Source of the DNA: Bacteroidia bacterium
GTDB taxonomy: Bacteria; Bacteroidota; Bacteroidia; Palsa-965
Length of the DNA stretch: 64,000 bases
NCBI GenBank assembly: GCA_039918435.1
Contig: JBDSHN010000075.1
Coordinates: forward strand, 13,342-77,341
Direction of reading: 5' to 3'
The first letter of the stretch is position 1. Each line of letters begins with the position of its first letter. The position numbers and the translations under genes were made by a program. The notes beneath the pieces were generated by a model that did no database searches, was not told where the DNA came from, and was given only the letters and a program-made list of their open reading frames with translations. This document shows, piece after piece, positions 31,185 to 58,655 of this stretch.

Positions 31185-31256
31185 TTTGCTAATATGCTGA
31201 TGAGTTAATGTGCTAATCCCGTCAGCACTTTATTATTGGCAAATTAGCACATGCTG
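31185..31256. repeat. TGCTAAT-heptad repeat element, copy 1
   Basis: tttgctaatatgctgatgagttaatgtgctaatcc ... ggcaaattagcacatgctg contains a 10-bp inverted pair atgtgctaat/attagcacat. It shares TTTGCTAATATGCT(A/G)ATGA with copy 3 and abuts the rlmN stop. Confidence 0.6.
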
Positions 31257-32339
31257 TTACTTCTTCAACTTCAACGCTTCTCCCGACTTAGTAATCGCTT
31301 CATTCTTATTCGCTAATTGTCCGCATGCTGCGTCGATGTCTTTTCCTCTTGAACGGCGAACATTTACGATTACGCCCCGCTCTTCGAGAATGTGAGTGAA
31401 ACGATTTAAACGTTCAGGTAAGGTTTGTTGAAATTCTCCATCATCAATCGGGTTGTATTCAATGATATTTACTTTTGCTGGAACTTTTTTGCAGAATGCG
31501 GCTAATTCTTTCGCGTCTTCAGCACCATCATTAAAATCTTTGAACACGATAAATTCAAAGGTGACACGCGTTCCTGTTTTGTCGTAAAAATGATTCATTG
31601 AATCAGCCAAAGCGTCAAGTGAATTTTCTTCATTGATAGGCATGATGTGATTTCGTTTGACATCATTCGCGGCGTGAAGCGAAAGTGCAAGATTGAATTT
31701 CACTTCATCATCACCCAGCTTGTGGATCATTTTTGCAATGCCGGCAGTAGAAACCGTGATACGTGAAGGCGACATATTCAATCCTTCAGGCGAAGTGATT
31801 TTCTCCACCGAAGTAAGCACGTTTTTATAATTCAGCAGCGGTTCGCCCATTCCCATGTACACGATATTCGTGAGCGGTTGCTGGTAACGCTCCTGTGCTT
31901 GGTTGCGGATGAGCACCACCTGGTCGTAAATTTCTTCTGCACCAAGGTTTCTTAATCGTGCAAGACGACCTGTTGCGCAGAATTTACATGTGAGACTACA
32001 GCCAACCTGTGAAGAAATGCACGCAGTCATCCGCGAATCGGTGGGAATAAGAACACCTTCAACAATGTTATTGTCATAAAGCCTGAATGCGCTCTTGATC
32101 GTACGGTCGTTAGAAACCTGGAAATTATCAATGCCGACAATTGGAAAAGAAAAATGTTCTTCCAGCACGGCTCGTGTTTCTTTCGAAAGATTCGTCATTT
32201 CCGAAAATCCGCGCGCCGATTTTTGCCAAAGCCATTCCCATACTTGTTTCCCACGGAACGCTTTTTCACCATGATCGGTAAAAAAAGTTTTCAGCTCATC
32301 AAGAGAAAGGCTGCGGATATTTGGTTTTGCCAATGACAT
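31257..32339 (-). CDS. rlmN: 23S rRNA (adenine2503-C2)-methyltransferase / tRNA m2A37 methyltransferase RlmN
   Basis: Radical-SAM CxxxCxxC (GCSLTCKFCATG), a C-terminal Cys, and the conserved N-terminal FRGKQVWEWLW. Confidence 0.85.
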   Translation of the reverse strand: MSLAKPNIRSLSLDELKTFFTDHGEKAFRGKQVWEWLWQKSARGFSEMTNLSKETRAVLEEHFSFPIVGIDNFQVSNDRTIKSAFRLYDNNIVEGVLIPTDSRMTACISSQVGCSLTCKFCATGRLARLRNLGAEEIYDQVVLIRNQAQERYQQPLTNIVYMGMGEPLLNYKNVLTSVEKITSPEGLNMSPSRITVSTAGIAKMIHKLGDDEVKFNLALSLHAANDVKRNHIMPINEENSLDALADSMNHFYDKTGTRVTFEFIVFKDFNDGAEDAKELAAFCKKVPAKVNIIEYNPIDDGEFQQTLPERLNRFTHILEERGVIVNVRRSRGKDIDAACGQLANKNEAITKSGEALKLKK

Positions 32340-32429
32340 ACTGCAAAGGTACGATGGAAATTCACGATCTTTACCGGATTGGGAAGATTCGCCCGATCTT
32401 TGATAAGTGCGTTTTAATTAATTTTATTT

Positions 32430-33596
32430 ATGCGTTTTCTTACTGCCGACTATATTTTTTCCGCCCATACAGGATTTATAAAAAAAGGAATTCTTGCCAT
32501 CGATGCAAACGGTGTTGTGTTTGATCTGATTGATCCCGAAAAGACAGAAAAGGTTCCAGTGGCCGAAAAATTCGACGGTATTCTTTTTCCCGGATTTGTA
32601 AATGCGCATTGTCATCTTGAACTTTCTCATTTGCATGGTAAGATCACGAAACAAACAGGTTTTGTTGAATTTGCAAAAGAGCTGCTTTCAAAACGGTCTG
32701 CATTTTCGCACGATGATATTTCTGCCGCCATTGAAAAAGCAGATGAAGAAATGTTCAATAACGGAATTGCCGGCGTTGGTGATATTTCAAATAACGCCGA
32801 TACATTTTCACAAAAAGAAAAGAACAGAATTCTTTATCATACGTTTATCGAAGTGCTTGCATTAAATCCTACCATGGCGGAAAAAGTAGCGGCTACCGGA
32901 ATAGAATTGCTGCGTACTGCACCGAAACCGAATTCACTTGTGCCGCATGCACCATATTCCGTTTCTCCTGAGCTGTTGGAAATTATTGCAAATTCGTCGC
33001 ATGAAGAAAATGTTCCGCTCACTATTCACAACCAGGAAAGCCTGGGAGAAAGTGAATTTTTTGCCAAACGTTCGGGTCCGATGAAAGGTTTTTATGAATT
33101 CCTCGGGCTTGACATTTCCTTTTTCAAACCAACAGGATTAAATTCACTTCGCAGCACGCTCAAATATTTGCCGCATAACAGGAATATTGTTCTTGTACAC
33201 AATACATTTACTTCTGCTGAAGATATCCGCTGGGCCGAATTTTACAGCAAGAATTTGTATTGGTGTTTTTGTCCGAATGCGAATTTATATATCGAGAATA
33301 AGCTTCCCGATTTCAATTTATTCATAGAAGGGAAAACGAAAATTGTCATTGGAACAGATTCATTGGCTTCGAATGATAAGCTTTCTGTGCTGGATGAGTT
33401 AAAAGTCATTGCTAAAACCGTTCCGGGAATTTCATTGGAGCAATTACTTACCTGGGCAACAAAGAACGGTGCAGAAGCATTGAATTTATCTTCCCTCGGA
33501 ACATTCGAAAAAAATAAAAAACCGGGAGTGAATTTACTTTCGAAAAGTACCGTTGCTAAGCTGTTGCCTGAAAGTGAAGTGAAGCGAATTTGTTGA
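32430..33596 (+). CDS. Amidohydrolase family protein (metal-dependent hydrolase, deaminase-like)
   Basis: GFVNAHCHLELSHLHG is the HxH metal-binding motif of the amidohydrolase superfamily. A later HNQES and a C-terminal D are consistent. 388 aa. Confidence 0.6.
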   Translation: MRFLTADYIFSAHTGFIKKGILAIDANGVVFDLIDPEKTEKVPVAEKFDGILFPGFVNAHCHLELSHLHGKITKQTGFVEFAKELLSKRSAFSHDDISAAIEKADEEMFNNGIAGVGDISNNADTFSQKEKNRILYHTFIEVLALNPTMAEKVAATGIELLRTAPKPNSLVPHAPYSVSPELLEIIANSSHEENVPLTIHNQESLGESEFFAKRSGPMKGFYEFLGLDISFFKPTGLNSLRSTLKYLPHNRNIVLVHNTFTSAEDIRWAEFYSKNLYWCFCPNANLYIENKLPDFNLFIEGKTKIVIGTDSLASNDKLSVLDELKVIAKTVPGISLEQLLTWATKNGAEALNLSSLGTFEKNKKPGVNLLSKSTVAKLLPESEVKRIC

Positions 33597-33649
33597 GGAA
33601 TGATAATTTCAGCAAGCGCAGAAATTCCTCCTTCTCAATTACTAATTAA

Positions 33650-34360
33650 TCACAGAAGTGTTCCACCATTCAAATCTCCCGCCACCGTCCGCCTGGATTT
33701 CAAAATTGCTTCAGCAATAATTAAATCCGTCGGTGTTGTCAATTTGAAATTATCCACGTTGCCATCCACGAGATGAATGGATTCCCCAAATGATTCTACA
33801 ACAGAAGCATCGTCGGTAAATGTGTATTTGTATTCCTGCGAATATGCTTTCTTCAGCAGCGGAACAGAAAAACATTGCGGCGTTTGTATCAGGCAATATT
33901 TTGAACGGTCAACAGCAACGCTGGGCTTTGAATCGTTCTGGCGGATGGAATCACTCAGCGGAATTGAAGGAACACCGCTTCCGTTAAGCTCAGCCATATT
34001 GAACGAATTGAGAATTGTTTTTTTTGTGACCAGCGGACGAACAGCATCATGCACTGCAACAAGCGCCTCTTCATCCGGAATTAAAGAAAGACCATTCTTC
34101 ACCGATTCAAAACGCGTTTCGCCTCCCGCCGTGATCTGAACCGGAACCGGAAGTTTATATTCCTGCGCGATCTTTTCCCAATGTGAAAACTCGCTGGCAG
34201 GTAAAACAAGAATAACGATGATGTCTTTATCGTAATCAGCAAACGCGGCAATGCTATGCAATAAAACAGGGCGTCCGTCCAGCTTTAAAAACTGTTTTGG
34301 TGTGGGAGATTGCATCCGCGAACCTCTTCCTGCTGCAACGATGATGACGTAATGTTTCAA
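33650..34360 (-). CDS. ispD: 2-C-methyl-D-erythritol 4-phosphate cytidylyltransferase
   Basis: The N-terminus YVIIVAAGRGSRMQSPTPKQFLKLDGRPVL is canonical IspD. 236 aa. Confidence 0.8.
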   Translation of the reverse strand: MKHYVIIVAAGRGSRMQSPTPKQFLKLDGRPVLLHSIAAFADYDKDIIVILVLPASEFSHWEKIAQEYKLPVPVQITAGGETRFESVKNGLSLIPDEEALVAVHDAVRPLVTKKTILNSFNMAELNGSGVPSIPLSDSIRQNDSKPSVAVDRSKYCLIQTPQCFSVPLLKKAYSQEYKYTFTDDASVVESFGESIHLVDGNVDNFKLTTPTDLIIAEAILKSRRTVAGDLNGGTLL

Positions 34361-34374
34361 GATTCCAAATATAG

Positions 34375-34583
34375 GGGGAAGTAGTTAGTCCGCGGCGGAG
34401 AAGTTATTAGTTCGGGGAATTTTTTGAAAAAGAGAACCAATTACAAGTGAAAACGAATTTATGAAAGCTCTTGGATTACATATTATTCGTACCATTCAGA
34501 ATTTGTTCTCCATCCAACAAAAAAAATCGGAGAAAACAGACGCATCCATTTTCTCCGAACTAAAAACTAATCCACCGCGGCGG
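34375..34583. mobile_element. MITE-like element bounded by inverted repeats of about 35 bp
   Basis: The left repeat is gtagttagtccgcggcggagaagttattagttcgg (34375-34409). The right is ccgaactaaaaactaatccaccgcggcggactacgaact (34545-34583). They are reverse-complement related through AGTCCGCGGCGG..TTAGTT..AGTTCG, and the ~135-bp interior has no ORF. Confidence 0.4.
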
Positions 34584-34591
34584 ACTACGAA

Positions 34592-35641
34592 CTATATGAT
34601 AAGCATGGCATCGCCGTAGCTCAGGAAACGGTATTTTTCTTTTACCGCTTCTTTGTATGCTTTCATGATCAGGTCATAACCACCGAATGCCGAAACCATC
34701 ATCAGCAAAGTAGATTCTGGCGCATGGAAATTAGAGATCATGCAGTTTGCGATTGAAAAATCATAAGGAGGAAAAACAAATTTGTTTGTCCAGCCGCTGA
34801 ATGGTTTCAGGTATCCATCGGTAGAAACCGAAGTTTCAGTTGCACGGATAGTAGTTGTTCCTACTGCACAAACGCGTTTTTTATTGCGTTTCGCTTCATT
34901 CACCAGCAATGTTGCACTAACGGGAATCTCAAGCTTTTCAGATTCCATTTTGTGCTTGGTGAGATCTTCCACTTCAACCGGACGGAAACTTCCCAATCCA
35001 ACGTGCAAGGTCAGCTTTGGGAATGTAATGCCTTTTAATTCCAGGCGTTTCAACAGCTCACGTGAGAAGTGCAATCCTGCAGTCGGAGCAGCAACAGCAC
35101 CTTCCACATCAGCGTAAACAGTCTGGTAACGGTCTTTATCTTCCGGGCTCAGCGGACGTTTGATGTATTTCGGAATAGGTGTATTTCCGAGAAGTTCAAT
35201 TGTTTTTTTGAATTCTTCGAACGGGCCGTCGAAAAGGAAACGCAATGTACGGCCACGACTTGTGGTGTTATCAATTACTTCAGCAACGAGGTTATCATTT
35301 TCGCCGAAGTAAAGCTTATTGCCGATACGGATTTTACGCGCAGGATCTACAAGCACATCCCAGAGGCGGCTTTCACGGTTCAGTTCACGAAGAAGAAAAA
35401 CTTCAATTTTAGCGCCTGTTTTTTCTTTGTTTCCGTAAAGGCGTGCAGGAAATACTTTCGTGTCATTCAAAATCATGCAATCGCCGTCATCGAAGTAGTT
35501 GATGATGTCTTTGAAGATCTTGTGCTCGATCTTGCCGGTTTTACGGTCAATGACCATCATCCGCGACTCATCACGGTTCTTTGAAGGGTAATCTGCCACC
35601 AGCTCTGGCGGAAGATGAAATTTGAATTGAGATAATTTCAT
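34592..35641 (-). CDS. queA: tRNA preQ1(34) S-adenosylmethionine ribosyltransferase-isomerase
   Basis: [19 protein letters not shown]...DESRMMV... is the canonical QueA N-terminus. 349 aa. Confidence 0.85.
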
Positions 35642-35854
35642 AGTACTCGAAATGGGTCTATACGGCCTTTGCGGACGCGTGATAATTACATGAAATTGTT
35701 ACGAGTTAACGGGAGATTGCCTTCACCTGTACCTTCGAACGGGCGCAAATATATCCTTCCGCATACCCCCTTGTCAAGTAAAATCGTATAAATCATTCAA
35801 ATAATCGGCGGTTAAGCCTGGAAGCCTTGTCAATGCTGGGAAATATTTCTGTGA

Positions 35855-36095
35855 GGAGGTTGGTAGTTGGTGTTAAAATGTAGGTGGTTGGTTGTAAAAA
35901 GGTCGAAAGTTGTTGGAAAGGTGCATTTACTTGTTCATTGAGCATTGAACATTTGACATTGTTTGTTTCGGATTTGGAGAAATTCTCATGGCAGCAAAAT
36001 GTTCAATGTCAAACTCACAATAGTCAATGGACAAGGTTAAAAAGAGTCAAAAACCACCAACCACCAACTCTTTTTCAACCACCCCCCCTTTTTAT
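35855..36095. repeat. Long imperfect palindrome with GGTTGG-repeat and CCAACC-repeat arms
   Basis: The left arm is gaggaggttggtagttggtg...gtaggtggttggttg...gttgttgg. The right arm is caaaaaccaccaaccaccaactc...caaccaccccccc. The centre holds partially complementary segments (cattgaacatttgacattg and aaatgttcaatgtcaaac). It lies in the 620-bp queA/DUF2306 divergent region. Confidence 0.45.
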
Positions 36096-36260
36096 ACTTC
36101 AAATGCACTATTGCCCCTTCAAAAATCATTTTCCACCTTTGAAATACACTTATTCAACAGATCTGCCATTTGTTGTTGAAAGTCGGCCAGTAACAAAAAT
36201 TAACTACTCCGTCTGTGACTTATCAGCTTATTTGGCGTTATAAATCAGCAAACCTCTAAC

Positions 36261-36935
36261 ATGAACAGCAGGATTCTTTCCGCCAAAAACGCCATCACCT
36301 TCGGGGTGTTTGTGCTGTTCTGGATTCCCGTCACCTTGCTGAGCCTGCTCCTTGTTTTTAACACAATTCCCTATTTTTCTTTTAACGCCGATATGCCTTT
36401 TCTGGAAACAAGGGAAGTATTGTACGCAAAACCAGTGTGGAGAATTTGTTTTTACGTGCATATTGCTGCCGGTTCATTCTGCATTCTTACTGCGCTCGTG
36501 CAGTTTTCTTCCTGGATATTGAAAAAACGAAAAAAGCTGCACATCATCTCCGGAAAAATTTATGTGTTTGTGGTATTGCTCATCGGCGCGCCAACCGGAT
36601 TTTACATGACATTTTTTGCAGAAGGCGGCGTTGGTGAAAGAATCTGTTTTATGCTGATGGCCATCTTCTGGTTTTATTCCACGCTGCGCGGATTTAAAGC
36701 TGCGGTGTATGATAAAAATTTTCTTTCGCATAAATACTGGATGATGCGATCATATTCCATGGCGCTTACAGCAGTTACATTCCGTATTTATCACATCATC
36801 TTCGATAAAATGGGAATGGTTCATTTCGATAACTATTCCCTTTCGCTCTGGATAAGCGTATTTGGAAACGCGCTAGTCTGTGAAGCGATCATTTTCTCTC
36901 AATCAAAAAAATACCTCAGCACACTTAAATTCTAA
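36261..36935 (+). CDS. DUF2306-like polytopic membrane protein
   Basis: 224 aa with 6 TM helices. The pattern resembles DUF2306. Confidence 0.4.
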   Translation: MNSRILSAKNAITFGVFVLFWIPVTLLSLLLVFNTIPYFSFNADMPFLETREVLYAKPVWRICFYVHIAAGSFCILTALVQFSSWILKKRKKLHIISGKIYVFVVLLIGAPTGFYMTFFAEGGVGERICFMLMAIFWFYSTLRGFKAAVYDKNFLSHKYWMMRSYSMALTAVTFRIYHIIFDKMGMVHFDNYSLSLWISVFGNALVCEAIIFSQSKKYLSTLKF

Positions 36936-36939
36936 TCTT

Positions 36940-37389
36940 ATGAAAACGTTCCTCACCATTTGTATTTGCGCCATGGTCACCGCCGGAATTTATGGTTTTG
37001 CGGATATGGCAGGCGATGTAAAAAACGGCACAATGATCCGATATGATCAAGACGATGAAGAATATGTGGATGTTTCACAAGGCGCATTGACTGTTGGAAT
37101 ATTGAATAATAACGCGACAAAAACTCAAGCTGTTATTTCTGAAACGAAAACAGCATCAAAGCAACAGCCCGAGATAAAGCTCATAGCAAAAAAGAAGATT
37201 GTTGTGAAAGATGAAACTGTTGTTGAAGAAAAAGAAGTTGTGAGCGTAAATGAAGAAAAATTTACAACAGATGTGATAGTAGATTCCGTTCCTAAGGAAG
37301 CGGTAAAAGAAGATTTAGAAATTAATTACAGGGAATTTTCACGCGGCGCACCACGCAAGCACAAAAGCAAAAAGCATCCAAAAGAATAA
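36940..37389 (+). CDS. Hypothetical membrane-anchored, Lys/Glu-rich protein
   Basis: The Met at 36940 gives MKTFLTICICAMVTAGIYGF (TM or signal). The remainder is charged low-complexity. The listed ORF has a 20-codon upstream extension. Confidence 0.35.
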   Translation: MKTFLTICICAMVTAGIYGFADMAGDVKNGTMIRYDQDDEEYVDVSQGALTVGILNNNATKTQAVISETKTASKQQPEIKLIAKKKIVVKDETVVEEKEVVSVNEEKFTTDVIVDSVPKEAVKEDLEINYREFSRGAPRKHKSKKHPKE

Positions 37390-37537
37390 TTTCAAATAAA
37401 ATAGTTTCGCTTTTGTAACTTTTTGAAAGCACGGTGTTATACTACTGACAACAACGGAAACTACTGGTTGTCCTCGCCGAAGGAGCTCTTTCGGACCGGG
37501 AAAGGCAGGGACCGCAGCCCGAACCCCCGGATCATTT

Positions 37538-37574
37538 AACGCCCGTTTTCTTCCTCAGGAACGGGCGTTTTTTA
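37538..37574 (+). terminator. Rho-independent terminator
   Basis: aacgcccgtt, 12-nt loop, aacgggcgtt (10-bp stem), followed by a T-run. Confidence 0.7.
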
Positions 37575-37618
37575 ATTTCAAATTGTGGTGAAGAAAAATC
37601 GTTTGCCAAACAATTCCA

Positions 37619-37900
37619 ATGGCAGCAAAGAAAAGCATATTCGAATTTATTATTGAAGTTCTCGGTTGGATTCAAATTGTTGCATCGCCATTATTCACAG
37701 GAATTATTATTGGCTTTGTTGTATACCTCGCAAAACCTGATGGAACGGGAATTACAATCGCATTTTCACTTGCAGCACTCGGATTAATCATTGGAATAAC
37801 CTGGGCTACGCGCGTTTGGAACAGAAAAGGAACAATACATTTTATGTCGAGAGTAATGGCAACTCCCGAACTTGATAAACCAAAAAAGGAAGAAGAATAA
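37619..37900 (+). CDS. Small hypothetical membrane protein (2 TM)
   Basis: 93 aa with two hydrophobic helices and a basic-acidic C-terminal tail. Confidence 0.35.
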   Translation: MAAKKSIFEFIIEVLGWIQIVASPLFTGIIIGFVVYLAKPDGTGITIAFSLAALGLIIGITWATRVWNRKGTIHFMSRVMATPELDKPKKEEE

Positions 37901-38024
37901 GGCATTACAAATGTAAAAAAATCATATTTAACACAATGAAAGAGGACGGTGAAAAAAAACAGCCTGAATTGTTGTACATTTCGAGAAATTTAAAACTTAA
38001 TTAATAACCCTAAACAGTTTTCTT

Positions 38025-39035: not shown

Positions 39036-39055
39036 CAAAAATTATTTATAAAATG

Positions 39056-39095
39056 AAAAGAGTCCCGTAGCAATGCGGGACTCTTTTCATTTTAT
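39056..39095. terminator. Bidirectional terminator hairpin between convergent genes
   Basis: gaaaagagtcccg, 8-nt loop, cgggactcttttc. A-rich on the left and T-rich on the right. Confidence 0.65.
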
Positions 39096-39109
39096 AAGCA
39101 TTGAAACTT

Positions 39110-47981: not shown

Positions 47982-47988
47982 CATTCTA

Positions 47989-49676: not shown

Positions 49677-49678
49677 TG

Positions 49679-49712
49679 GATACGAATTACGAAGCGTACG
49701 AAAATACGAAAG
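49679..49712. repeat. TACGAA-hexamer repeat element, copy 1 (abuts the folC start codon)
   Basis: ggaTACGAAtTACGAAgcgTACGAAaaTACGAAagg shares GGATACGAATTACGAA...ATACGAAAGG with 56418-56454. Confidence 0.6.
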
Positions 49713-49777
49713 GAAATAATGGGGACTTCCACTATTTCCTTTCTAAGCTTTTTCTCACTCATTTCATATTTCGTACT

Positions 49778-50647: not shown

Positions 50648-50648
50648 C

Positions 50649-51047: not shown

Positions 51048-51090
51048 GGTTGATAATGTGTTAATATAAAACGCAGGAGATTTGCAATTA

Positions 51091-51822: not shown

Positions 51823-51980
51823 GATTTTCGGTTGTTGTTAATTAGAACGCATACAATCACCCGAAATTATCTTAAAGCGAAGGGCCCCCGGTGTATGCTC
51901 TGAGCCGATTTTCAACACCAGCGTGTTCATTCCGGAGGCCCATGATCCTGCATCCCAGCAGAATCCTCGTCGCGACGATC

Positions 51981-52095
51981 AAAAAAAGGGGGCAGGGTTT
52001 TAGGGGCAGGAGGCAGGTGCAGTATATTATTGTATTTAATTAACACAAGTAATTTTTTTTCTGCCGCCTGCCTCCTTTTTTCCTGCTCCTCTTTT
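51981..52095. repeat. Long imperfect palindrome with GGGGCAGG-type arms
   Basis: The left arm is aaaaaaagggggcagggttttaggggcaggaggcaggtgcag. The right arm is ctgccgcctgcctccttttttcctgctcctcttttt. The loop is AT-rich and about 38 nt. On the minus strand it is followed by a U-run, so it is the likely terminator of the TonB gene. Confidence 0.5.
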
Positions 52096-52880
52096 TATTT
52101 CAATATAAATCTCACAGGTTTATTGTACAGATATTCTACAATCTCCCCATTCTCATCCTTCACAGGTTCCCATTTAGGCATGAACTTAGCCACGCGCAAA
52201 ACTTCCCTGTCAAGCAACGGATTTACACCTTTCGCTATTTTGATATCGCGGACGTCTCCTTTGGTATCAACAATGAAGGTGAGAACAACAGTTCCCTGAA
52301 TTCCATCGTCTTTCGCAGCTTGCGGATATTTGATGTTCTTCACGAAAAATGCATCAAGTCCCGGATCCTTCGGAGGAAATGGAAGCCAGTCACGAAGCGT
52401 TGGCTTTTTCGGAATTGAATCTTTGCAATTCGGGCAAGGATTTACCGCAACAGTACCAGTATCCTTCAATAAACCAATTCCCTTTTCAGATCCATTCGGA
52501 TTTCCGGGGGTTAAGGTCAGGTCTACATGGCTTAGGGAATCTTTTGTAATTACAATATTGCTTGTAATTGTGTTTGAAGATCCCTTTGGTGCGGGCGGTT
52601 TGGTCACAACTGGTTTTATTGGCGGATTGACCGGAGGATTTCCAATTATCATAACCGAATCATGAATTGTCGTTACTGATGTTGGCATTGCTGCATTGGA
52701 TTCCGGCATATTAATAAAATACGTGCCAAGCGCGATAGAGAAAAGTGTGACCGCAAAAAAAGCGGCGAGCAAAACATTCCTGCTATAACGTTTACGGATT
52801 TGATAGGCACCGTAATTTTTGTGCCGGTTTTCGAATACAAGCTCATTGAAGCTTGCATTAAGCACCATATTAGTGTCCAT
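52095..52880 (-). CDS. tonB: Energy transducer TonB
   Basis: N-terminal RHKNYGAYQIRKRYSRNVLLAAFFAVTLFSIAL (TonB anchor), a Pro-rich spacer (PPVNPPIKPVVTKPPAPK), and a C-terminal TonB domain (GIQGTVVLTFIVDTKGDVRDIKIAKG...NGEIVEY). Confidence 0.7.
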   Translation of the reverse strand: MDTNMVLNASFNELVFENRHKNYGAYQIRKRYSRNVLLAAFFAVTLFSIALGTYFINMPESNAAMPTSVTTIHDSVMIIGNPPVNPPIKPVVTKPPAPKGSSNTITSNIVITKDSLSHVDLTLTPGNPNGSEKGIGLLKDTGTVAVNPCPNCKDSIPKKPTLRDWLPFPPKDPGLDAFFVKNIKYPQAAKDDGIQGTVVLTFIVDTKGDVRDIKIAKGVNPLLDREVLRVAKFMPKWEPVKDENGEIVEYLYNKPVRFILK

Positions 52881-53388
52881 ACGATTTTTGTTTTTGGTGT
52901 CAGCTGTTTTTAAATTCAGCGTGACCGGGTTAGTTAATCTGTTTCAATGTCTCGTGCTGCAGCTGGAGACATTCTTCTATTTGCTGCCGGGATGTATTCG
53001 CCAACCGGTTGGATGTATCTGCGGGATGAGCAGATCGCAATTGGTTTTTACAAATAGAAGAGTAAAGTTCAGATCATCTATGGAAGGATATTGCTTTCAC
53101 TATTGTATACAGCAACGTTAAGCAGTAAGTTTCATGCAAGTAACGACAGATGTATATCTGGCGGAGAAAAAGATGTAAGTGGGGGAAATTCAATATTCAA
53201 CTATTCAATATTCAAAATTGCAAAAGGAAATTCAAAATAAAAGAAGAATTTCCTTGTTTTAGTTATGGAAAAACAAAAAATATTGAATCCAACGAGGTTG
53301 TCATACCGTGTGTTCCGTCTGAAAGAAATGCTTACTGTTTATCAATGAGATTTAATTCAGACGGAATGTATCGAGGTCGGGGCTGCGG

Positions 53389-54609
53389 TTAAAGAAGCTG
53401 CTTCAACGCAATAGAAAATGCTGCTTTTGCAATATTCGTTTTGCCGGGATTTAAAGAATATGTTTTTTCCATTGCTTTTTTAATGGTAAAAGAAACATCA
53501 TTAAAAATAGCATCATCGGTAAGCACGGCATCTTCCTGCATGAGGTAAGCAAACACTCTTGCCATTCCGCAATTCGCAATGAAATCCGGAATGAGACTGA
53601 CGCGTTCATCTGCATATTCTCCGATTGGTCCGAAGAAAATTTCTTTATCCGCAAACGGAACATTCGCACCGCATGCAATTACTTCGAGACTATTACCGAT
53701 CATCAGATCAAGCTGCTCTCTTGTTACTAATCTTGAAGCGGCCGCAGGAATAAAAATTTCAGCACCGCAAGACCATGCTGCATTTTTGGTTTCCTCAGGT
53801 GAAAGCAGGTTTTCAGCAACCAGCTTATTACTTGTTTTATTATTAAAGAGTGTTGTAATTTCTTCAAATGTAAATCCATCAGCATTCACAAGTCCGCCTT
53901 CACGATCGATGATCGCTGTGATGCGCGCACCCATTTGCGCAAGATAATAAGCAGCCGCAGAAGCAACATTTCCCCAGCCCTGGATAATTGCTCTTTTCCC
54001 TTTTACATCACCGCCCCACACATCATAATAATGCTTCACCGATTCCGCCACACCATAACCAGTGATCATGTCTGCCACTGTCAATCCCTGTACAGGAACA
54101 TATTTTTCATCCGTTACTTTTTTTACTACGCCCTCGCGCAATTGCTCAATACGTTTTGAAGCGCCCGAATCTCCCGCGCCGAAATGTCCACGCACAACAC
54201 CTTCCTGCGGATGAAGCAAACCATATTGCTGCGTAATTGCTATCACATCATGAATTTCATCCACGTTCAAATCGCCGCCTGTGCCGTAATAATTTTTCAG
54301 CAATGGCATTACTGCTTTGAACCAACGCTCCAGCACACCTTTCCGGCGTGGATCAGAAGGATCAAAATTAATTCCGGATTTTGCTCCACCAATTGGCGGA
54401 CCGGCAACTGTGAACTTCACTTCCATTGTTTTTGCAAGCGATTCCACTTCCCGGCGATCCAATCCTTTACGCATACGTGTACCGCCGCCTGCCGCACCTC
54501 CGCGAAGGGAATTGATCACAATCCACCCTTCAGCTTCTGTTTCAGTGTCTTTCCATTCAAAAATTATTTCGGGTCTTTTGTTTTCGTATGCGTCGAGTAA
54601 ATCTTTCAT
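53389..54609 (-). CDS. Glu/Leu/Phe/Val dehydrogenase family protein
   Basis: The catalytic Lys region is AGPPIGGAKSGINFDP and the Rossmann NAD(P) region is IQGWGNVASAAAYYL. 406 aa. Confidence 0.7.
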   Translation of the reverse strand: MKDLLDAYENKRPEIIFEWKDTETEAEGWIVINSLRGGAAGGGTRMRKGLDRREVESLAKTMEVKFTVAGPPIGGAKSGINFDPSDPRRKGVLERWFKAVMPLLKNYYGTGGDLNVDEIHDVIAITQQYGLLHPQEGVVRGHFGAGDSGASKRIEQLREGVVKKVTDEKYVPVQGLTVADMITGYGVAESVKHYYDVWGGDVKGKRAIIQGWGNVASAAAYYLAQMGARITAIIDREGGLVNADGFTFEEITTLFNNKTSNKLVAENLLSPEETKNAAWSCGAEIFIPAAASRLVTREQLDLMIGNSLEVIACGANVPFADKEIFFGPIGEYADERVSLIPDFIANCGMARVFAYLMQEDAVLTDDAIFNDVSFTIKKAMEKTYSLNPGKTNIAKAAFSIALKQLL

Positions 54610-54770
54610 TGTTGCTTCCGGATTGTGAGGCGCAAAAGTACGAAATGAGGCGATTGAAAAAATTAATCATACGAATATTGACGGAGCAAAAAAAATATTT
54701 AAACTTGCCTCATAATTATTGCAGGATAGAAAACCTTTCTACCTTTACTGACAATAAGATTCATCACAAG

Positions 54771-55070
54771 ATGGCAAAGACAAATAAACTACCGAAAGAA
54801 ACTACTTCTGCAAAAGACAAAGCAGGTGCCGTTGAAAAAACGTCAAAGAAAAAAAAGTCTTCTGAAGAAGATGATGACGAAGATGTTCCTGCAGAGGAAA
54901 CAGAAGACGAGGATCTTCCAGAGGAGGACGACGATTTTGAAAAACCTGAAGAGGAAGATGACAGCGACGATGTTGATGATAAAAAAATCAAGATCGAAGA
55001 AGTGGATATTGAAAATCTTGAGGATGACGAGGATGAGGAAGAACCTTTCTTCGAAGACGACAACTTTTAA
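54771..55070 (+). CDS. Small highly acidic protein (about 60% Asp/Glu after a basic N-terminus)
   Basis: MAKTNKLPKETTSAKDKAGAVEKTSKKKKSSEEDDDEDVPAEETEDEDLPEEDDDFE... The listed ORF from 54588 is an unsupported upstream extension. Confidence 0.4.
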   Translation: MAKTNKLPKETTSAKDKAGAVEKTSKKKKSSEEDDDEDVPAEETEDEDLPEEDDDFEKPEEEDDSDDVDDKKIKIEEVDIENLEDDEDEEEPFFEDDNF

Positions 55071-55095
55071 TCGTTTTCAAAATTCTTTTTGAATA

Positions 55096-55126
55096 CAAAA
55101 ATCCGGTGATGAGCCGGATTTTTTTT
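55096..55126 (+). terminator. Rho-independent terminator
   Basis: aaaaatccgg, loop tgatgag, ccggattttt, then T-run. Confidence 0.65.
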
Positions 55127-55162
55127 GTTTTTGCGTGAGTGATTGAGGTATTGTTGGAGCTC

Positions 55163-55223
55163 TTTTTTTGAAGTTGAACCCTCAAAGGGTTTCAAACCCT
55201 TTGAGGGTTCAACTTCAAAAAAA
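55163..55223. terminator. 61-nt perfect palindrome (bidirectional terminator candidate)
   Basis: tttttttgaagttgaaccctcaaagggttt c aaaccctttgagggttcaacttcaaaaaaaa forms a perfect stem of about 30 bp with T and A runs at both ends. Confidence 0.65.
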
Positions 55224-55308
55224 AGCGACTACCGAAAGCACGACCTCGTCAATGGTAAACTTAATTTTTATTGAATTCTCAGTTTGACGAGGACACGCCC
55301 GGATTACT

Positions 55309-56379
55309 TTAATAATAAATAGTTCCCCCGCTGCTATCCTGCCGCGCACCAGTTACGCTGTTTAAGGTATTGATCTTGTTCTGCCAGCGTAATAATCCGA
55401 GAAACGCAAAGATCAACGCTTCTTTAAAATCAATCGTTTCTCTTTCGGGAAGAATAATTTTTGCCTTGCATTTTTCTTTCAGCAATGAAATTAAAAATGC
55501 ATTATGTGCGCCGCCGCCTGTAACAAGCATTTTTCCATTTCCGTTTGCCGCAAGAGAAATCTGGTGCGCTACATGCTCTGTAAATGTGCGAAGCAGGTCT
55601 TCGGCTTTTTCTGATTCGGGAAGCAAGGGAAAAATAACTTCTTCCACCCATTCGCGCCCGATTGATTTTGGTGGCGATTTTTGAAAGTAGGCGAGTGCAT
55701 TCAGGGTTGAAAAAATTTCCGGAATAAGCTTTCCAGATGCTGCGAATGATCCGTTTTCATCGAATGGCTTATACAAACGCGACGCCAATCGGTTCATTAC
55801 ATAATTGACTGCGCAAATATCATAAGCAATTCTTTTTCCATTTGATTCAAAAGAAATATTTGCAAATCCTCCGAGATTCAAACAGTAATCGAATTTCTTA
55901 AAAAGCAACGCATCGCCAATAGGAACGAGTGGCGCTCCTTGTCCGCCCAGCGCTACATCCAGCGTACGGAAATCACACACAACAGGAATGCCGCAAGCCA
56001 TTCGCAATGCCGCGCCCGAACCCGCCTGGAACGTGTAACCTTTTTCTCCGGAGGAGCGGGCAGGCTGATGAAAAATAGTATGACCGTGCGAAGCAACAAA
56101 ATCTGGCGGCTGAAGATTGAAATTCTTTAAAAATGTAAACACACATTCGCCGAGATAAGTACCATATTCAGAATGAAAACGTTGCAATTCATCGCCGGAA
56201 GTTTTTTCTGCATGCAACAATTTTTTCACCCATTCTTCCGGGTAAATAATCGTTTTTGCTTCTTCAATTTCATACTTCCATTCCCCGTCATTTTCCCAAA
56301 ATTTCACGAGGCAAATATCCAGGCCGTCAAGCGAAGTGCCCGACATTAAGCCAATTACGCGATGAGAAGCAGTTGCCAT
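55309..56379 (-). CDS. anmK: Anhydro-N-acetylmuramic acid kinase
   Basis: The N-terminus MATASHRVIGLMSGTSLDGLDICLV and overall ~355 aa length fit AnmK. The listed start at 56415 is a TTG read as Met, so the ATG at 56379 is preferred. Confidence 0.8.
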   Translation of the reverse strand: MATASHRVIGLMSGTSLDGLDICLVKFWENDGEWKYEIEEAKTIIYPEEWVKKLLHAEKTSGDELQRFHSEYGTYLGECVFTFLKNFNLQPPDFVASHGHTIFHQPARSSGEKGYTFQAGSGAALRMACGIPVVCDFRTLDVALGGQGAPLVPIGDALLFKKFDYCLNLGGFANISFESNGKRIAYDICAVNYVMNRLASRLYKPFDENGSFAASGKLIPEIFSTLNALAYFQKSPPKSIGREWVEEVIFPLLPESEKAEDLLRTFTEHVAHQISLAANGNGKMLVTGGGAHNAFLISLLKEKCKAKIILPERETIDFKEALIFAFLGLLRWQNKINTLNSVTGARQDSSGGTIYY

Positions 56380-56394
56380 TTTAGGTAATGAATT

Positions 56395-56454
56395 ACGAAT
56401 GAAACTAATATACAAAAGGATACGAATTACGAATCAAAACGAATATACGAAAGG
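56395..56454. repeat. TACGAA-hexamer repeat element, copy 2 (5' region of anmK)
   Basis: aattacgaatgaaa...ggaTACGAAtTACGAAtcaaaACGAATaTACGAAagg. Confidence 0.6.
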
Positions 56455-56558
56455 CTTTGACCAAGACCCATTTTCAAATTATTCGCGGCATTCGTTTTCA
56501 TTAGTAATTCGTTCACCACAATTATGGTATTTTTCGCACTAAAAGTTATCTTTGTCGC

Positions 56559-57734
56559 ATGGAAACCACCTTAGCAACCGATATCTCCCACGGACTCAAT
56601 TTCGAGCTTTCCGAAGAACATTTAATGATCCAGAAAGCTGCCCGTGATTTTGCGCAGAACGAATTGAAGCCCGGCGTAATTGAACGCGACGAGCACCAGA
56701 AATTTCCGACAGAGCAAGTGAAAAAGATGGGCGAACTCGGATTTTTAGGAATGATGGTGGATCCGAAATATGGAGGTGGCGGAATGGATACCATTTCCTA
56801 CGTGCTAGCGATGGAAGAAATTTCCAAAGTAGATGCTTCCTGCTCCGTGATCATGTCGGTGAATAATTCACTTGTTTGCTGGGGAATTCAAAATTTCGGT
56901 ACAGAAGAGCAAAAGCAAAAATATTTAATTCCGCTTGCAAAAGGCGAGATCATCGGAGCTTTCTGCCTTTCAGAACCGGAAGCAGGATCGGATGCAACTT
57001 CACAGCGCACAACTGCAATTGACAAAGGCGATCATTATTTGCTAAACGGAACAAAGAACTGGATTACCAATGGAAACAGCGCTTCTGTTTATTTGGTAAT
57101 TGCACAAACTGATGTTGCAAAAGGCCACAAAGGAATCAACGCATTCATCCTGGAAAAAGGAATGCCCGGATTTGTTGTTGGTCCGAAAGAAAATAAAATG
57201 GGCATTCGTGCCAGCGATACACATTCGCTCATGTTCACCGACGTAAAAGTTCCGAAAGAAAACCGCATCGGCGATGATGGATTCGGATTTAAGTTCGCAA
57301 TGAAAACATTAACCGGCGGACGAATCGGTATTGCATCTCAAGCACTTGGGATTGCATCGGGTGCTTACGAATTAGCACTCGGTTATTCCAAAGAAAGAAA
57401 AGCATTTGGCAAGCCAATTCACGAACACCAAGCCATTGCATTCAAGCTTGCCGATATGGCAACTGAAATTGAAGCCGCGCGTTTGTTATGTTTAAAAGCA
57501 GCATGGCACAAAGACATGCACATGGATTATGGTTTGTCGAGCGCAATGGCAAAATTATTCGCATCGCGTGTAGCAATGTGGGTAACCACAGAAGCAGTTC
57601 AGGTGCACGGCGGTTACGGTTACGTGAAAGAATACCACGTAGAACGCTTAATGCGCGATGCTAAAATTACGCAGATCTACGAAGGAACTTCAGAAGTGCA
57701 GAAGATCGTTATTTCAAGAAATATTCTTGGGTAA
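56559..57734 (+). CDS. Acyl-CoA dehydrogenase (short/medium-chain type)
   Basis: YGGGGMDTISYVLAMEEISKVDAS...GAFCLSEPEAGSDA...YEGTSEVQKIVISRNILG has the full ACAD architecture. 391 aa. Confidence 0.85.
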   Translation: METTLATDISHGLNFELSEEHLMIQKAARDFAQNELKPGVIERDEHQKFPTEQVKKMGELGFLGMMVDPKYGGGGMDTISYVLAMEEISKVDASCSVIMSVNNSLVCWGIQNFGTEEQKQKYLIPLAKGEIIGAFCLSEPEAGSDATSQRTTAIDKGDHYLLNGTKNWITNGNSASVYLVIAQTDVAKGHKGINAFILEKGMPGFVVGPKENKMGIRASDTHSLMFTDVKVPKENRIGDDGFGFKFAMKTLTGGRIGIASQALGIASGAYELALGYSKERKAFGKPIHEHQAIAFKLADMATEIEAARLLCLKAAWHKDMHMDYGLSSAMAKLFASRVAMWVTTEAVQVHGGYGYVKEYHVERLMRDAKITQIYEGTSEVQKIVISRNILG

Positions 57735-57740
57735 GGAAGG

Positions 57741-57777
57741 AATGTGCTAATCTGCTAATGGGTTAATGTGCTAATGA
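57741..57777. repeat. TGCTAAT-heptad repeat element, copy 2
   Basis: aatgtgctaatctgctaatgggttaatgtgctaatga lies 7 nt after the ACAD stop. A weak hairpin plus T-run follows at 57776-57808. Confidence 0.65.
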
Positions 57778-57942
57778 AAAAGCCGGTCTTAGTTGATCGG
57801 CTTTTTTGTGGGGTTTAGGAAAAGAAGTTGAAAATGATCAGGAGCTATTCCGGCTATCCGCTGCAAGTCCTCCCATAAAGTACGCGCTGCGCTTGACTTT
57901 ATGGTCCGGGCTTTACGCTGCTATCCGGGCTAAAAAAAATCA

Positions 57943-58620
57943 TTACAAACTAAAATACCGGATGAGTGCAAAAGTCAGCGCAAACAAACCAAGCGCCAGC
58001 GTAATAAGATAAACGGGCAACAACAACGCTGATCCTGCAACGAGCAACACAATAGTAAAAATAAGTCCGACAGTATCAGCAATTCCTGCTAAAACAAACA
58101 AAGTTGATTTCTTTTTATTTTTCGCGATCATGTAAACGAATCCGAGAAAATAAAACCAATAGGGAGGAAGCACAAGACAAACGAGCGTAAATAAAAAGAT
58201 AGTCACTGCATCGGATAACCATCCCGGCACACTGGCATTGCTTGGTAACAGTTTGTGTGTTGTTTTAACTTTAAATAAACTGCTTTTCGGATTTTTAATT
58301 TTCTGCTGCGTTTTCTTTTCTGCTGCATTTATTTTTGGAACCGGAGCAGTTGTAATTACTGTTTCATTTGTCTTTACATCGGCAATTATAACTGAAACAG
58401 AATCGGGTTGTTTGAGTTTAACCATTGGCGAAATTGAAGCCATCGCGCCTTCCTGTTTTTCAGAAGCGGAAACTGATTTGAGGCTTTCAACATAAAAACC
58501 TTTCCGGTAATGGCGTTTCTGAAGGTCGATTGCACCTATAGAAGAACAAGCGGCAAAAAAGAAACACAAAAGAAACACAAAAGCGGCCTGTTTGAAATCG
58601 GGGCGTTTTTTCATTAGCAT
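57943..58620 (-). CDS. Hypothetical membrane protein (lipoprotein-like N-terminus, C-terminal TM bundle)
   Basis: ...FLLCFFFAACSS..., then an extracytoplasmic segment and 4 C-terminal TM helices. The first codons (ATGCTAATG) are encoded by repeat copy 3. Confidence 0.45.
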   Translation of the reverse strand: MLMKKRPDFKQAAFVFLLCFFFAACSSIGAIDLQKRHYRKGFYVESLKSVSASEKQEGAMASISPMVKLKQPDSVSVIIADVKTNETVITTAPVPKINAAEKKTQQKIKNPKSSLFKVKTTHKLLPSNASVPGWLSDAVTIFLFTLVCLVLPPYWFYFLGFVYMIAKNKKKSTLFVLAGIADTVGLIFTIVLLVAGSALLLPVYLITLALGLFALTFALIRYFSL

Positions 58621-58655
58621 ATTAGCAAATTAACCCATTAGCAGATTAGCACATT
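58611..58655. repeat. TGCTAAT-heptad repeat element, copy 3, inverted relative to copy 2
   Basis: tcattagcatattagcaaattaacccattagcagattagcacatt is the reverse complement of aatgtgctaatctgctaatgggttaatttgctaatatgctaatga. Confidence 0.65.

Follow-up and report, generated by a model that had tools for sequence, protein, structure and literature searches.

We found that the window, a stretch of 64,000 nt of genomic DNA from a Bacteroidia bacterium, carries four arrays of the octamer AATGTGCT that form two inverted pairs, a compact pair between rlmN and its convergent neighbour gene and a wide pair across the gap between murF and an acyl-CoA dehydrogenase gene. A first-pass annotation had recognised three dispersed copies, all of which lie where it had placed them, and these are probably the arms of two foldback-type (hairpin-shaped) extragenic repeat elements. 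No published description of the octamer family was found, and it is apparently undescribed so far. The repeat unit, equivalent to N-TGCTAAT, has a period of 8 bases according to Tandem Repeats Finder, not the 7 bases of the heptads proposed earlier. It is degenerate, with the consensus AATGTGCT and the general form RAT-N-TG-NN, and the window arrays include the variants GGGTT, CTGCT, and TTGCT. When up to three mismatches were allowed, TGCTAATNTGCTAAT matched the window 22 times against 9.3 expected, a number attained in none of 100 shuffles, and 13 of these 22 matches were located in copies 1, 2, and 3. The bare 7-mer TGCTAAT showed no overall enrichment in the window (14 matches versus 11 expected), and 10 of the 14 fall inside arrays. 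Almost all long intergenic regions of the window have their own flavour of inverted short-period array. The features of the two elements are as follows.

31183 to 31217, + strand: forward arm of copy 1, four octamer units plus AAT (AATTTGCT AATATGCT GATGAGTT AATGTGCT AAT)
31218 to 31234, no strand: loop of the compact element
31235 to 31253, - strand: short inverted arm of copy 1, CATGTGCT AATTTGCC AAT on the - strand
57741 to 57775, + strand: forward arm of copy 2, AATGTGCT AATCTGCT AATGGGTT AATGTGCT AAT
57778 to 57806, + strand: terminator-like hairpin with a 15-bp stem (A-run, GCCGGTC, loop, GATCGGC, T-run)
57843 to 57935, - strand: Flavo-1 RNA, 44.8 bits against a gathering score of 42
57943 to 58620, - strand: gene encoding a membrane or lipoprotein-like protein of 223/225 aa, variable cargo
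58613 to 58655, - strand: forward arm of copy 3, AATGTGCT AATCTGCT AATGGGTT AATTTGCT AATATGCT AAT

The start of each of the four arrays lies at the stop of a same-strand gene, from 18 nt inside it to 8 nt past it, and each array therefore points away from that stop. Copy 1 had been described as abutting the rlmN stop (31257-31259), which is true of its inverted partner, 3 nt away and counted with CAT, not AAT, as its first unit, but not of its forward array, which instead adjoins the stop of ORF 30431..31174 and starts 8 nt past it. The short partner at 31235-31253 matches TGCTAATNTGCTAAT at 31235-31249 with one mismatch; it fails the rule used in our counts, by which an array has at least three units. 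Copy 2 starts 6 nt past the acyl-CoA dehydrogenase stop (57732-57734). Copy 3 opens in murF codon N (..G N V L I C *) and closes in the start ATG of the following gene, and the final five murF codons with the stop (..GNVLIC*, stop 58638-58640) lie within it, which had been missed earlier. For the gene 3' of murF, the longest ORF starts at 58620 (MLMKK), whereas on a public contig of identical sequence the gene is called from 58614 (MKK); copy 3 overlaps either of these start codons, as had been claimed. Copies 2 and 3 are 97% complementary over 35 nt (34/35 identical when both are read in the forward direction), and copies 1 and 2 show 89% identity across 35 nt.

Copies 2 and 3 were correctly reported to bracket the gene 57943..58620 in inverted orientation, and a Pfam search of its product gave no match. 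In relatives, the two arms bracket zero, one, two, or three small genes, and the membrane-protein gene is therefore variable cargo, not a partner of the repeat. The terminator-like hairpin lies directly 3' of copy 2 within the wide loop and is conserved in relatives; the 78-nt stretch that contains it folds at -24.5 kcal/mol, and it was absent from a simple terminator scan because its stem includes A/T runs. The Flavo-1 RNA is a passenger in the wide loop, outside the repeat itself, and Flavo-1-like sequence was recognised by eye, unscored, in the relatives L247 and L253.

A census of the family was performed using the 23-base pattern TGCTNATGNGTTAATNTGCTAAT, for which we estimate about one chance match in 596 Gb. 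The pattern matched at least 119 genome loci and 45 phage loci. Among the matches listed, all taxon-labelled genome matches are from Bacteroidota (a handful have generic labels only), with Chitinophagales, Saprospiraceae, Sphingobacteriales, Bacteroidales, Flavobacteriales, and Cytophagales represented, and an ordered 35-mer, GTGCT / NTGCT / GRGTT / GTGCT, is shared by distant genomes. The distribution in Bacteroidota is patchy: 650 kb of unselected Bacteroidota DNA around 80 murF homologues contained 2 array-like runs versus 0.85 by chance. Across the set of 218 arrays, an ORF boundary is found no more than 10 nt from the 5' end in 113 of 205 cases (78 at stop codons and 35 at start codons), compared with only 10 of 199 for the 3' end, the boundaries outside the window and its relatives being those of a crude longest-ORF map and not of a trained gene caller. 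The commonest arrangement is a TAA overlapping the first AAT at stop codons and a distance of 6 nt at start codons. Facing pairs within 250 nt obey the rule 5'-(AATGTGCT)n-loop-(AGCACATT)n-3' in 158 cases versus 5 of the opposite arrangement (59 versus 0 in genomes, 99 versus 5 in phage contigs). The outermost unit is the most canonical, being AATGTGCT in 56% of arrays; four units are the commonest length (94/218; range 3 to 24), and the two arms of a pair are often unequal. T precedes the outer end in only 61% of arrays, no general target-site duplication was visible, and searches next to arrays and between distant arm pairs revealed no transposase, RAYT, or any other gene that recurs.

The octamer family is very dense in some Bacteroidota phages, with 233 arrays across 356 kb of phage loci; the phage contigs are mostly from one sample and interrelated, and their counts are therefore non-independent. 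In L124, a genuine phage according to PHROGs, elements occupy the gap between the portal and protease genes and the gaps 3' of the major head and major tail genes. No arrays were found in the cultured Bacteroides phage Bacuni_F1, which shares 75% identity with L124 in its capsid protein and in which the portal gene overlaps the protease gene. Between orthologous phage sites, length varies by multiples of 8 or 16 nt, showing that units are gained and lost in such steps, and also through tandem duplication of whole modules; at one of them the original element is swapped for a GTGCAAAT-flavour element with a different loop. Comparison of an empty site (..cacACTATGgcacgc..) with a filled site (..ACTATGctg[111-135 nt]aactCTATGgcacgc..) in phages with flanks 88-100% identical shows that an element was inserted or deleted at a gene boundary, and a short direct duplication accompanies it. 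At this single clean site the duplication flanking the element is 5 bases long, and template switching at microhomology could equally be its source. One loop core, GAGTGGCACAATCCTTA, recurs at an unrelated site, and identical loop cores at unrelated sites occur in phage and Prevotella contigs alike.

The family extends beyond the three copies first noted, both across Bacteroidota and in the relatives of the window. Among three genomes with 85-88% identical MurF, the murF arm has been kept in place in all (L247, L249, and L251) and the dehydrogenase arm in two (L247 and L249), with 33/35 identity to copy 2 and followed by the same terminator hairpin as in the window; at the dehydrogenase site, L251 has an array of a different flavour. 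The two wide arms are 34/35 identical to each other in the window versus 29/35 and 27/35 in relatives. In L249 and L251, the array bridges the murF stop to the start of the downstream gene (...GCTAATGAAAAA), and L247 keeps the murF array with no following gene. In L252, which has no arrays, murF still ends GGA AAT GTG CTG, i.e. AATGTGCT as codons N-V-L, so that an in-place origin from coding sequence is possible at the murF site. An inverted low-complexity hairpin lies flush with both stops of the rlmN junction in three of four lineages (the window, L255/L256, and L259), and its sequence differs each time.

RNA folding of the copy 1 region (31175-31256) gave -22.9 kcal/mol on the + strand (z = -3.6) and -18.3 kcal/mol on the - strand (z = -1.8). 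A single forward arm (35-mer) folds at -4.7 kcal/mol (z = -0.8), and the reverse arm, at -1.0 kcal/mol, is an almost structureless RNA. Between same-strand genes, sense folds were weaker than antisense folds (12 versus 22 for genomes, p = 0.008; 10 versus 64 for phages). No U-run was found 3' of element hairpins, the hairpin 3' of the L124 major head gene being followed instead by A7, and the simple scan detected no terminator at copy 1.

On balance, we favour the octamer element being a REPIN- or foldback-MITE-like element that is tolerated, and possibly used, by genes at their boundaries. Its arm is a polar array, usually of four to five degenerate octamer units, with the outer end placed at the stop of a same-strand gene or about 6 nt away from an opposite-strand start, and its loop, from a few bases to several hundred, can accommodate a terminator, a small RNA, or small genes. 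Insertion may be the work of an enzyme or of template switching, and the two arms of an element may be homogenised with each other. The forward arm contains TAA in all three frames and the reverse arm TAG or TAA in all three; with stops in every frame, canonical reverse units lacking ATG, and near-structureless reverse RNA, the element could adjoin a stop or start without extending or masking an ORF. The arms may also pair in transcripts, copy 1 being predicted to form a hairpin across the convergent gene junction and copies 2 and 3 to pair over 845 nt on the - strand transcript, and such pairing may stabilise or delimit transcripts. Against this explanation, the long conservation of the arrays at murF and at the dehydrogenase gene, in place as well as in sequence, goes further than a purely selfish element would predict.

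It is possible, if doubtful, that the paired arms are instead a host-selected RNA signal, a 3'-UTR or intercistronic hairpin ending, attenuating, processing, or protecting transcripts like REP stabilisers or the RNase III sites of T7, with mobility secondary. Retention of the murF arm in three relatives and the dehydrogenase arm in two at this MurF identity points that way, as do the flush rlmN-junction hairpins of differing sequence, the placement of phage elements after portal, major head, and major tail genes, the significant fold of the copy 1 region, and the greater similarity of the window's wide arms than of the relatives' arms. However, array-like runs occur at the chance rate in unselected Bacteroidota DNA, and the cultured phage relative, where the same genes overlap, has none; the hairpins lack a U-run and copy 1 a scanned terminator, the sense fold is the weaker one between same-strand genes, paired arms are often unequal, and copy 2 is followed by an ordinary terminator hairpin of its own. 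Translational coupling, by which the forward arm would hand ribosomes from a stop to the next start through overlapping three-codon mini-ORFs (AUG-NNN-UAA, via UAAUG), is very unlikely. Copy 3 spans exactly from the murF stop to the next ATG, the bridging is preserved in L249 and L251, where a downstream gene is present, and UAAU provides a strong context for termination in E. coli, but a forward array ends within 10 nt of a downstream start in only 4 of 199 cases, behind most of them lies a loop with a reverse arm, a terminator, or nothing, no stop codon is present in the flavours GTGCAAAT, GTGCCAAT, and TTGAAAAT, and L247 retains its array with no following gene.

The earlier suggestion of an operator for an unknown regulator is not upheld, since the copies lie at stops and not promoters, unit number is free, and the flavour was replaced at one orthologous phage site. 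These points also bear on the wider proposal, which we judge unlikely, that the octamer is a site for an operator protein, a nucleoid protein, or a post-transcriptional regulator (compare that made for TAACTGA heptamer repeats): a single octamer common to distant orders, strict period 8, polar arrays, and best conservation in the outermost unit fit it, but arrays of 3 to 24 units with no linked gene found are missing from most Bacteroidota, and a spacing of 8 bp does not keep phase with the DNA helix. Independent in-place replication slippage at gene boundaries, yielding simple-sequence arrays neither mobile nor functional, would account for the 8- or 16-nt length steps, the excess of unrelated heptamer arrays in array-rich genomes (8.1 per 100 kb versus 2.15 in the unselected sample), the inverted short-period array flavours of almost all long intergenic regions of the window, and the murF end of the array-free relative as a potential seed. 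It is nevertheless improbable given the 35-mer shared by distant genomes, the arm polarity of 158 to 5, the identical loop cores at unrelated sites, and the clean insertion with flanking duplication at one site.

The preferred foldback- or REPIN-like reading can be set against known systems. Foldback transposons (Drosophila FB and relatives) have long inverted arms of degenerate short tandem subrepeats, variable or unequal in length, and a variable central loop able to carry cargo, and the octamer element resembles them, by analogy, in its unequal subrepeat-built arms and variable cargo-bearing loop. They are eukaryotic and far larger, with transposases known for some families, and there is no link by descent. 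With REP/BIME/REPIN sequences of Proteobacteria, the octamer family shares short, high-copy extragenic repeats near gene 3' ends, frequent hairpin-forming inverted pairs of fixed polarity, occurrence inside transcription units, and a patchy spread across lineages with stable position within a lineage. The REP/BIME-like label first applied thus holds by analogy (dispersed, extragenic, at gene ends, often in foldable inverted pairs, many copies in some genomes) but not as membership: a REP is a 20-40 nt imperfect palindrome with a GTAG or CGTC tag (PMC3733652), whereas the octamer arm is a non-palindromic tandem array (-4.7 kcal/mol, z = -0.8) with neither tag and no RAYT-type gene nearby. REPINs are described as mostly vertically inherited (10.1101/2022.05.22.493013), whereas the octamer family is spread over an entire phylum and the phages of that phylum. 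Mrazek 2007, as cited in PMC4679880, dealt more broadly with long simple-sequence repeats. The TAACTGA heptamer direct repeats of Beggiatoaceae, Cyanobacteria, and five Bacteroidetes (MacGregor 2015, PMC4679880) are likewise intergenic tandem arrays of a 7-8 nt unit with stop codons, a few bases from gene boundaries, with a patchy phylogenetic spread suggesting horizontal transfer. They differ in unit and period (7 versus 8 here) and are described as direct repeats in forward orientation, most of them immediately 5' of a start codon, apart from one 'indirect' case (PMC4679880), whereas the octamer rule is inverted forward-loop-reverse pairs, in which the AUG-rich orientation is the one that comes after stop codons. 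The BrickBuilt MITE of Porphyromonas gingivalis, with a 23-nt minisatellite between distinct leader and tail parts (PMC4596501), is also a Bacteroidota intergenic repeat with tandem subrepeats and inverted ends. In contrast to BrickBuilt, which is species-specific, lies 49-591 nt from genes, and has promoter activity (PMC4596501), the octamer arrays are set against gene ends and the family spans Bacteroidota.

Octamer arrays were found at the three places marked by the first-pass annotation (c1, c2 and c3). Arrays that read AATGTGCT are referred to as F and their complements, which read AGCACATT, as R.

Octamer arrays and the RNA lying between c2 and c3 (window positions)
31183-31217, + strand: c1, with a short inverted partner at 31235-31253
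57741-57775, + strand: c2
58613-58655, - strand: c3
57843-57935, - strand: Flavo-1 RNA (Rfam RF01705), 44.8 bits against a gathering score of 42

The unit had been taken for a heptad, but Tandem Repeats Finder gave a period of 8, not 7. Over 35 nt, complementarity between c2 and c3 is 97% and identity between c1 and c2 is 89%. When up to three mismatches were allowed, a two-unit pattern matched 22 times in the window against 9.3 expected, a number reached in none of 100 shuffles. According to ORF maps and the gene calls of an identical public contig, all F arrays of the window are directed away from the stop codon of a same-strand gene. c1 starts 8 nt past the stop of ORF 30431..31174, and its partner 3 nt past the rlmN stop. 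c2 starts 6 nt past the stop of the acyl-CoA dehydrogenase gene and is followed by a terminator-like hairpin, for which we relied on the fold because a simple terminator scan did not list it. c3 starts inside murF (-18 overlap), codes for ..N-V-L-I-C-stop and runs as far as the ATG of the gene that follows. For the membrane-protein gene, the longest ORF begins at 58620 (MLMKK) with an ATG from the last repeat unit, and the database call starts at 58614 (MKK), six bases downstream. Since a stop codon recurs every 8 nt (TAA in the F arm, TAG or TAA in the R arm), neither arm leaves any of the three frames open. Most F units contain an AUG, forming ATG-NNN-TAA mini-ORFs linked via TAATG, and canonical R units contain no ATG.

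With its partner, c1 is a complete small element that occupies the 82-nt gap of two convergent genes, and the region folds at -22.9 kcal/mol (z = -3.6). c2 and c3 are arms at both ends of the 903-nt murF/dehydrogenase gap, and their wide loop contains the terminator hairpin, the Flavo-1 RNA and the membrane-protein gene. By eye, Flavo-1-like sequence was also seen at the same place in two relatives of the window, L247 and L253.

Nearly all longer intergenic regions of the window have their own inverted pair of degenerate arrays with a 7-8-nt period.

Regions with inverted arrays of 7-8-nt period (window positions)
10375-10570
16580-16690
11728-11800
21385-21500
35890-36095
51990-52090
49680-49777
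56385-56540
28745-28835
6610-6674

The flavours of these intergenic regions, that is, the sequence variants of the array unit, are GGGACGAA/TTCGTCCC, AATGTGCA, GCGCAGAGAC, GGGGCAGG, TACGAA and GGTAATTG, together with CATTGAAC, which sits nested within GGTGGTTG. The architecture is a general one, and the TGCTAAT family is one of its flavours. Separate from the octamer family is a repeat structure at 18372-19118, in which 3.9 tandem copies of a 42-nt unit (18781-18941) are flanked by a 36-nt sequence in three copies (18372, 18764 and 19083; 97-100% matched, direct or inverted).

A protein search identified MurF relatives with 75-88% identity, and the gene order porP/sprF, gldK-like, murF, variable stretch, dehydrogenase, anmK is kept.

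Arrays at the murF and dehydrogenase ends in relatives of the window
L247, MurF 87%: murF end, F array of 4 units; dehydrogenase end, F arm 33/35 to c2 with the same terminator hairpin
L249, MurF 85%: murF end, F array of 4 units; dehydrogenase end, F arm 33/35 to c2 with the same terminator hairpin
L251, MurF 88%: murF end, F array of 6 units; dehydrogenase end, octamer array of another flavour
L253, MurF 75%: murF end, degenerate; dehydrogenase end, GTGCAAAT-flavour array
L252, MurF 76%: none at either end
L254, MurF 66%: none at either end

The number of small genes between the arms is zero in L247, one in the window and in a JGI contig, two in L249 and three in L251, and no Pfam matches were obtained for small genes in this interval (window 57776-58612, L247, L249, L251 and the JGI contig). 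This interval, with its conserved arms at murF and the dehydrogenase gene, is a variable spot. The two arms are identical at 34/35 positions in the window versus 29/35 and 27/35 in relatives, and at the rlmN junction the relatives have inverted arrays of wholly different flavours, or none. A C-terminus of the form (N/D)VL(M/I/V)(G/C/N), encoded by RATGTGCTAATGGG, is shared by about 40 MurF homologues with at least 65% identity. The endings supplied by octamer units in the window (58638-58655) and these homologues are ..NVLIC*, ..NVLMG*, ..DVLMG* and ..DVLINN*, and more distant MurF proteins end in ..VAEAL. Either the reading frame has taken in the repeat, or those codons gave rise to the array.

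A search pattern made of the 23 bases common to c1-c3, for which we estimate about one chance match in the 596-Gb genome collection, matched at least 119 genome stretches. This number, together with the murF arrays kept in L247, L249 and L251, disposes of the possibility that the family amounts to three unconserved copies. Among the matches listed, all that name a taxon are Bacteroidota, and a handful are labelled only 'bacterium' or 'metagenome assembly'; the orders and families named are Chitinophagales, Saprospiraceae, Sphingobacteriales, Flavobacteriales, Cytophagales and Bacteroidales, the last including Prevotella, Muribaculaceae, Phocaeicola and Parabacteroides. Cultured carriers are Flaviaesturariibacter amylovorans JCM 17919, Chitinophaga rupis DSM 21039, Adhaeribacter soli MA2 and Paraflavitalea speifideaquila BL16E. 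Arrays contain 3-24 units (mode 4), the most canonical unit being the outermost one, and the form RAT-N-TG-NN fits nearly all period-8 flavours.

Placement was counted on a crude longest-ORF map of the 119 listed loci and the window. In 113 of 205 arrays, the 5' end of F was no more than 10 nt away from an ORF boundary, 78 of them at stop codons (commonly with TAA overlapping the first AAT) and 35 at opposite-strand start codons (commonly 6 nt off), whereas the 3' end did so in only 10 of 199. Because both arms carry stops in all frames, comparing the two ends controls for ORF-calling artefacts. As between gene ends and promoters, the 78 arrays and all window arms that start at stop codons speak for gene ends. 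Opposite-strand arrays within 250 nt of each other were arranged as F-loop-R in 59 cases and as R-loop-F in none in the genomes, and genomes and phages together gave 158 F-loop-R pairs versus 5 of the opposite kind. Over longer ranges the usual order is R..gene..F. Compact elements, with inverted arms, are about 75-400 nt long. Copies of one element (..TGCTAATgaataagaat..) were observed at the extreme ends of the short MAG contigs L008 and L076, and from this position the repeats evidently break short-read assemblies.

In IMG/VR, the 23-base pattern retrieved 45 contig stretches with 233 arrays in 356 kb. Facing pairs were again F-loop-R (99 versus 5), with the same one-sided placement as in genomes. 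One of these contigs, L124, is a real phage with portal, protease, major head, major tail and amidase genes (PHROGs); its F-loop-R elements occupy the entire portal/protease gap and also lie 3' of the major head and major tail genes. The nearest cultured phage, Bacteroides phage Bacuni_F1 (capsid protein 75% identical), has zero arrays, and its portal and protease genes overlap. Orthologous elements were compared between related phages with 83-100% identical flanks. Their length differences are multiples of 8 or 16 nt, and some show a tandem duplication of the entire module. Furthermore, 3' of the major head gene, the GTGCTAAT-flavour element has given way to one of GTGCAAAT flavour, whose loop (41 nt) is a different one. 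At the single cleanly polymorphic site, the empty form ..cacACTATGgcacgc.. contrasts with the filled form ..ACTATGctg[111-135 nt]aactCTATGgcacgc.., indicating an insertion at a start codon with a 5-nt CTATG duplication on the flanks. The loop core of this site was also present at an unrelated site and in a Prevotella-assigned contig. A general target-site duplication was not visible in the array flank composition, which does not support TA or TTAA duplication as a general rule either. The flanks of L100, a contig assigned to Prevotella sp. UMGS287, are 96-100% identical to the IMG/VR phages L125, L122 and L147, so that L100 is either a prophage or a contig of phage origin that was binned with Prevotella; this gives a hint as to which host the array-rich phages have. 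At one site of related phages (L130 1-105, L160, L157 and L143), a further inverted-array flavour was noted by eye, with a unit of about 8-9 nt (ATGAGTTTA) and the loop gggttgaacatgaataaac.

Single arms folded at -4.7 kcal/mol for F (35 nt, z = -0.84) and at -1.0 kcal/mol for R, that is, R RNA is essentially unstructured and F RNA only weakly structured. Predicted mean fold energies of pairs ranged from -34 to -59 kcal/mol across junction classes. G-U asymmetry, used as a test for a sense-strand RNA hairpin, gave the reverse outcome: with crude gene calls, and with phage contigs that are related to one another, the sense fold of same-strand-gene pairs was stabler in 12 cases and the antisense fold in 22 in genomes (p = 0.008), and in 10 and 64, respectively, in phages. 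On the same calls, the longer arm was on the start-codon side in 15 versus 6 cases in genomes and 45 versus 14 in phages. The antisense excess is at least partly due to this longer start-side arm and, in the phage set, to the replacement of G by A at position 4 of the units in the stop-side arm. Stronger antisense folds and longer start-side arms argue against selection for a strong mRNA hairpin; beyond that, the fold asymmetry is not clean evidence for anything. Both fit with R sequence remaining unpaired before start codons.

As an unselected control, we used 80 loci (650 kb) from a metagenome scan with MurF, whose MurF homologues are 45-51% identical. They contained 2 array-like runs against 0.85 expected by chance, indicating that the family is not a general expression signal of Bacteroidota. 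Unrelated heptamer arrays occurred at 8.1 per 100 kb in array-selected flanks versus 2.15 in unselected DNA.

The proposal that the repeat is an operator for an unknown regulator gained no support, since all window copies are at stop codons and no array-specific recurrent regulator was found in flanking ORFs. Intrinsic terminators, which consist of a G+C-rich hairpin with a U-run immediately after it, were rejected: the arrays are A/T-rich with no U-run, and a terminator scan listed none at c1. A canonical separate terminator follows within 75 nt in only 13 of 218 arrays, c2 included. The Bacteroidota promoter (-7 TAnnTTTG, -33 TTTG) is not matched by units that read TAATTTGC or TAATGTGC, one base short, and lie at stop codons. 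The idea that start codons keep to the array's 8-nt phase was dismissed as the commonest gap of 6 nt gives a 9-nt spacing, and a Chi-like recombination octamer as the bare 7-mer is not enriched outside arrays in the window count. The likenesses to a DnaA box and to a Fur box are superficial. At the gathering score, Rfam yielded only Flavo-1 and tRNAs in the window, and when the copies and phage elements were scanned permissively, nothing but miRNA-like hairpin noise below the threshold came up.

We propose that the element spreads and changes as DNA, that its translation safety may let genes tolerate it flush at their boundaries, and that homogenisation or a putative RNA role might account for its long retention in place in some lineages. 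Bacteroidota do not use Shine-Dalgarno-guided initiation or classical ribosome-binding sites. A bolder reading, which we regard as rather improbable, is a Bacteroidota-specific punctuation of gene boundaries, with a candidate transposase/recombinase as installer or a candidate factor that binds the 8-nt unit in RNA or DNA; F arms after stops and AUG-free, unstructured R arms before starts would insulate translation and delimit transcripts, and the system would have been taken over in its entirety by the phages that infect array-rich hosts.

Provided that the rules apply across whole genomes, the arrays make up a large and apparently undescribed bacterial repeat family, common to very distant Bacteroidota and to phages with about one array per 1.5 kb. 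The family follows an unusually strict grammar: units of 8 nt, a single polarity of the arms, and outer ends that abut stop or start codons. It bears on the ways in which short repeats enter compact genomes and stay there (in this family, clear insertion polymorphism stands alongside long positional conservation), on gene separation and expression in a phylum without classical ribosome-binding sites, and on why certain genomes gather 7-8-nt arrays. In practice, the arrays give real genes stop codons and C-terminal residues, as in MurF (..NVLIC*, ..NVLMG*), offer spurious upstream ATGs to gene callers and disrupt short-read assembly. The cultured carriers make these questions experimentally accessible.

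Literature searches with the exact sequences GTGCTAATGTGCTAAT and ATTAGCACATT or with octamer/REPIN/MITE-foldback keywords returned no description of the element, and the closest published phenomenon found was the TAACTGA heptamer repeats (PMC4679880). These differ in having a 7-nt direct-repeat unit, TAACTGA, instead of the octamer AATGTGCT, and in their arrangement. The suggested kinship with REP/BIME sequences was partly borne out, in that the element is extragenic, multi-copy and near gene 3' ends: 78 arrays start within 10 nt of a stop codon, as do 4/4 window arms including the -18 murF overlap. On the other hand, a REP unit is an imperfect palindrome of 20-40 nt, and the single octamer arm contains none (35-nt F fold, z = -0.84). 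One end of a REP also carries a conserved tetranucleotide, GTAG or CGTC (PMC3733652), a tag absent from the array composition table, where the outer end reads (T)AATGTGCT. By these defining features, the octamer element is not a REP or BIME. No linked enzyme was found at the fetched array loci. REPINs have a cognate single-copy RAYT gene, typically repeat-flanked, and the 717 flanking ORFs of these loci contained only response regulators, ABC ATPases and T9SS tails as recurrent families. MITEs have a related transposase-encoding element; none was found among the fetched loci, and distant F..R pairs there enclosed no autonomous element but only ordinary cellular genes, e.g. P-type ATPase, Ffh, alanine dehydrogenase and TsaE. 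The octamer elements nevertheless share with REPINs two inverted repeats in a fixed relative orientation (158 versus 5 pairs), separated by a spacer and capable of forming a hairpin, and with MITEs their small size and inverted repeats at the ends; the best fit is an extragenic repeat of foldback type that resembles REPINs or MITEs.
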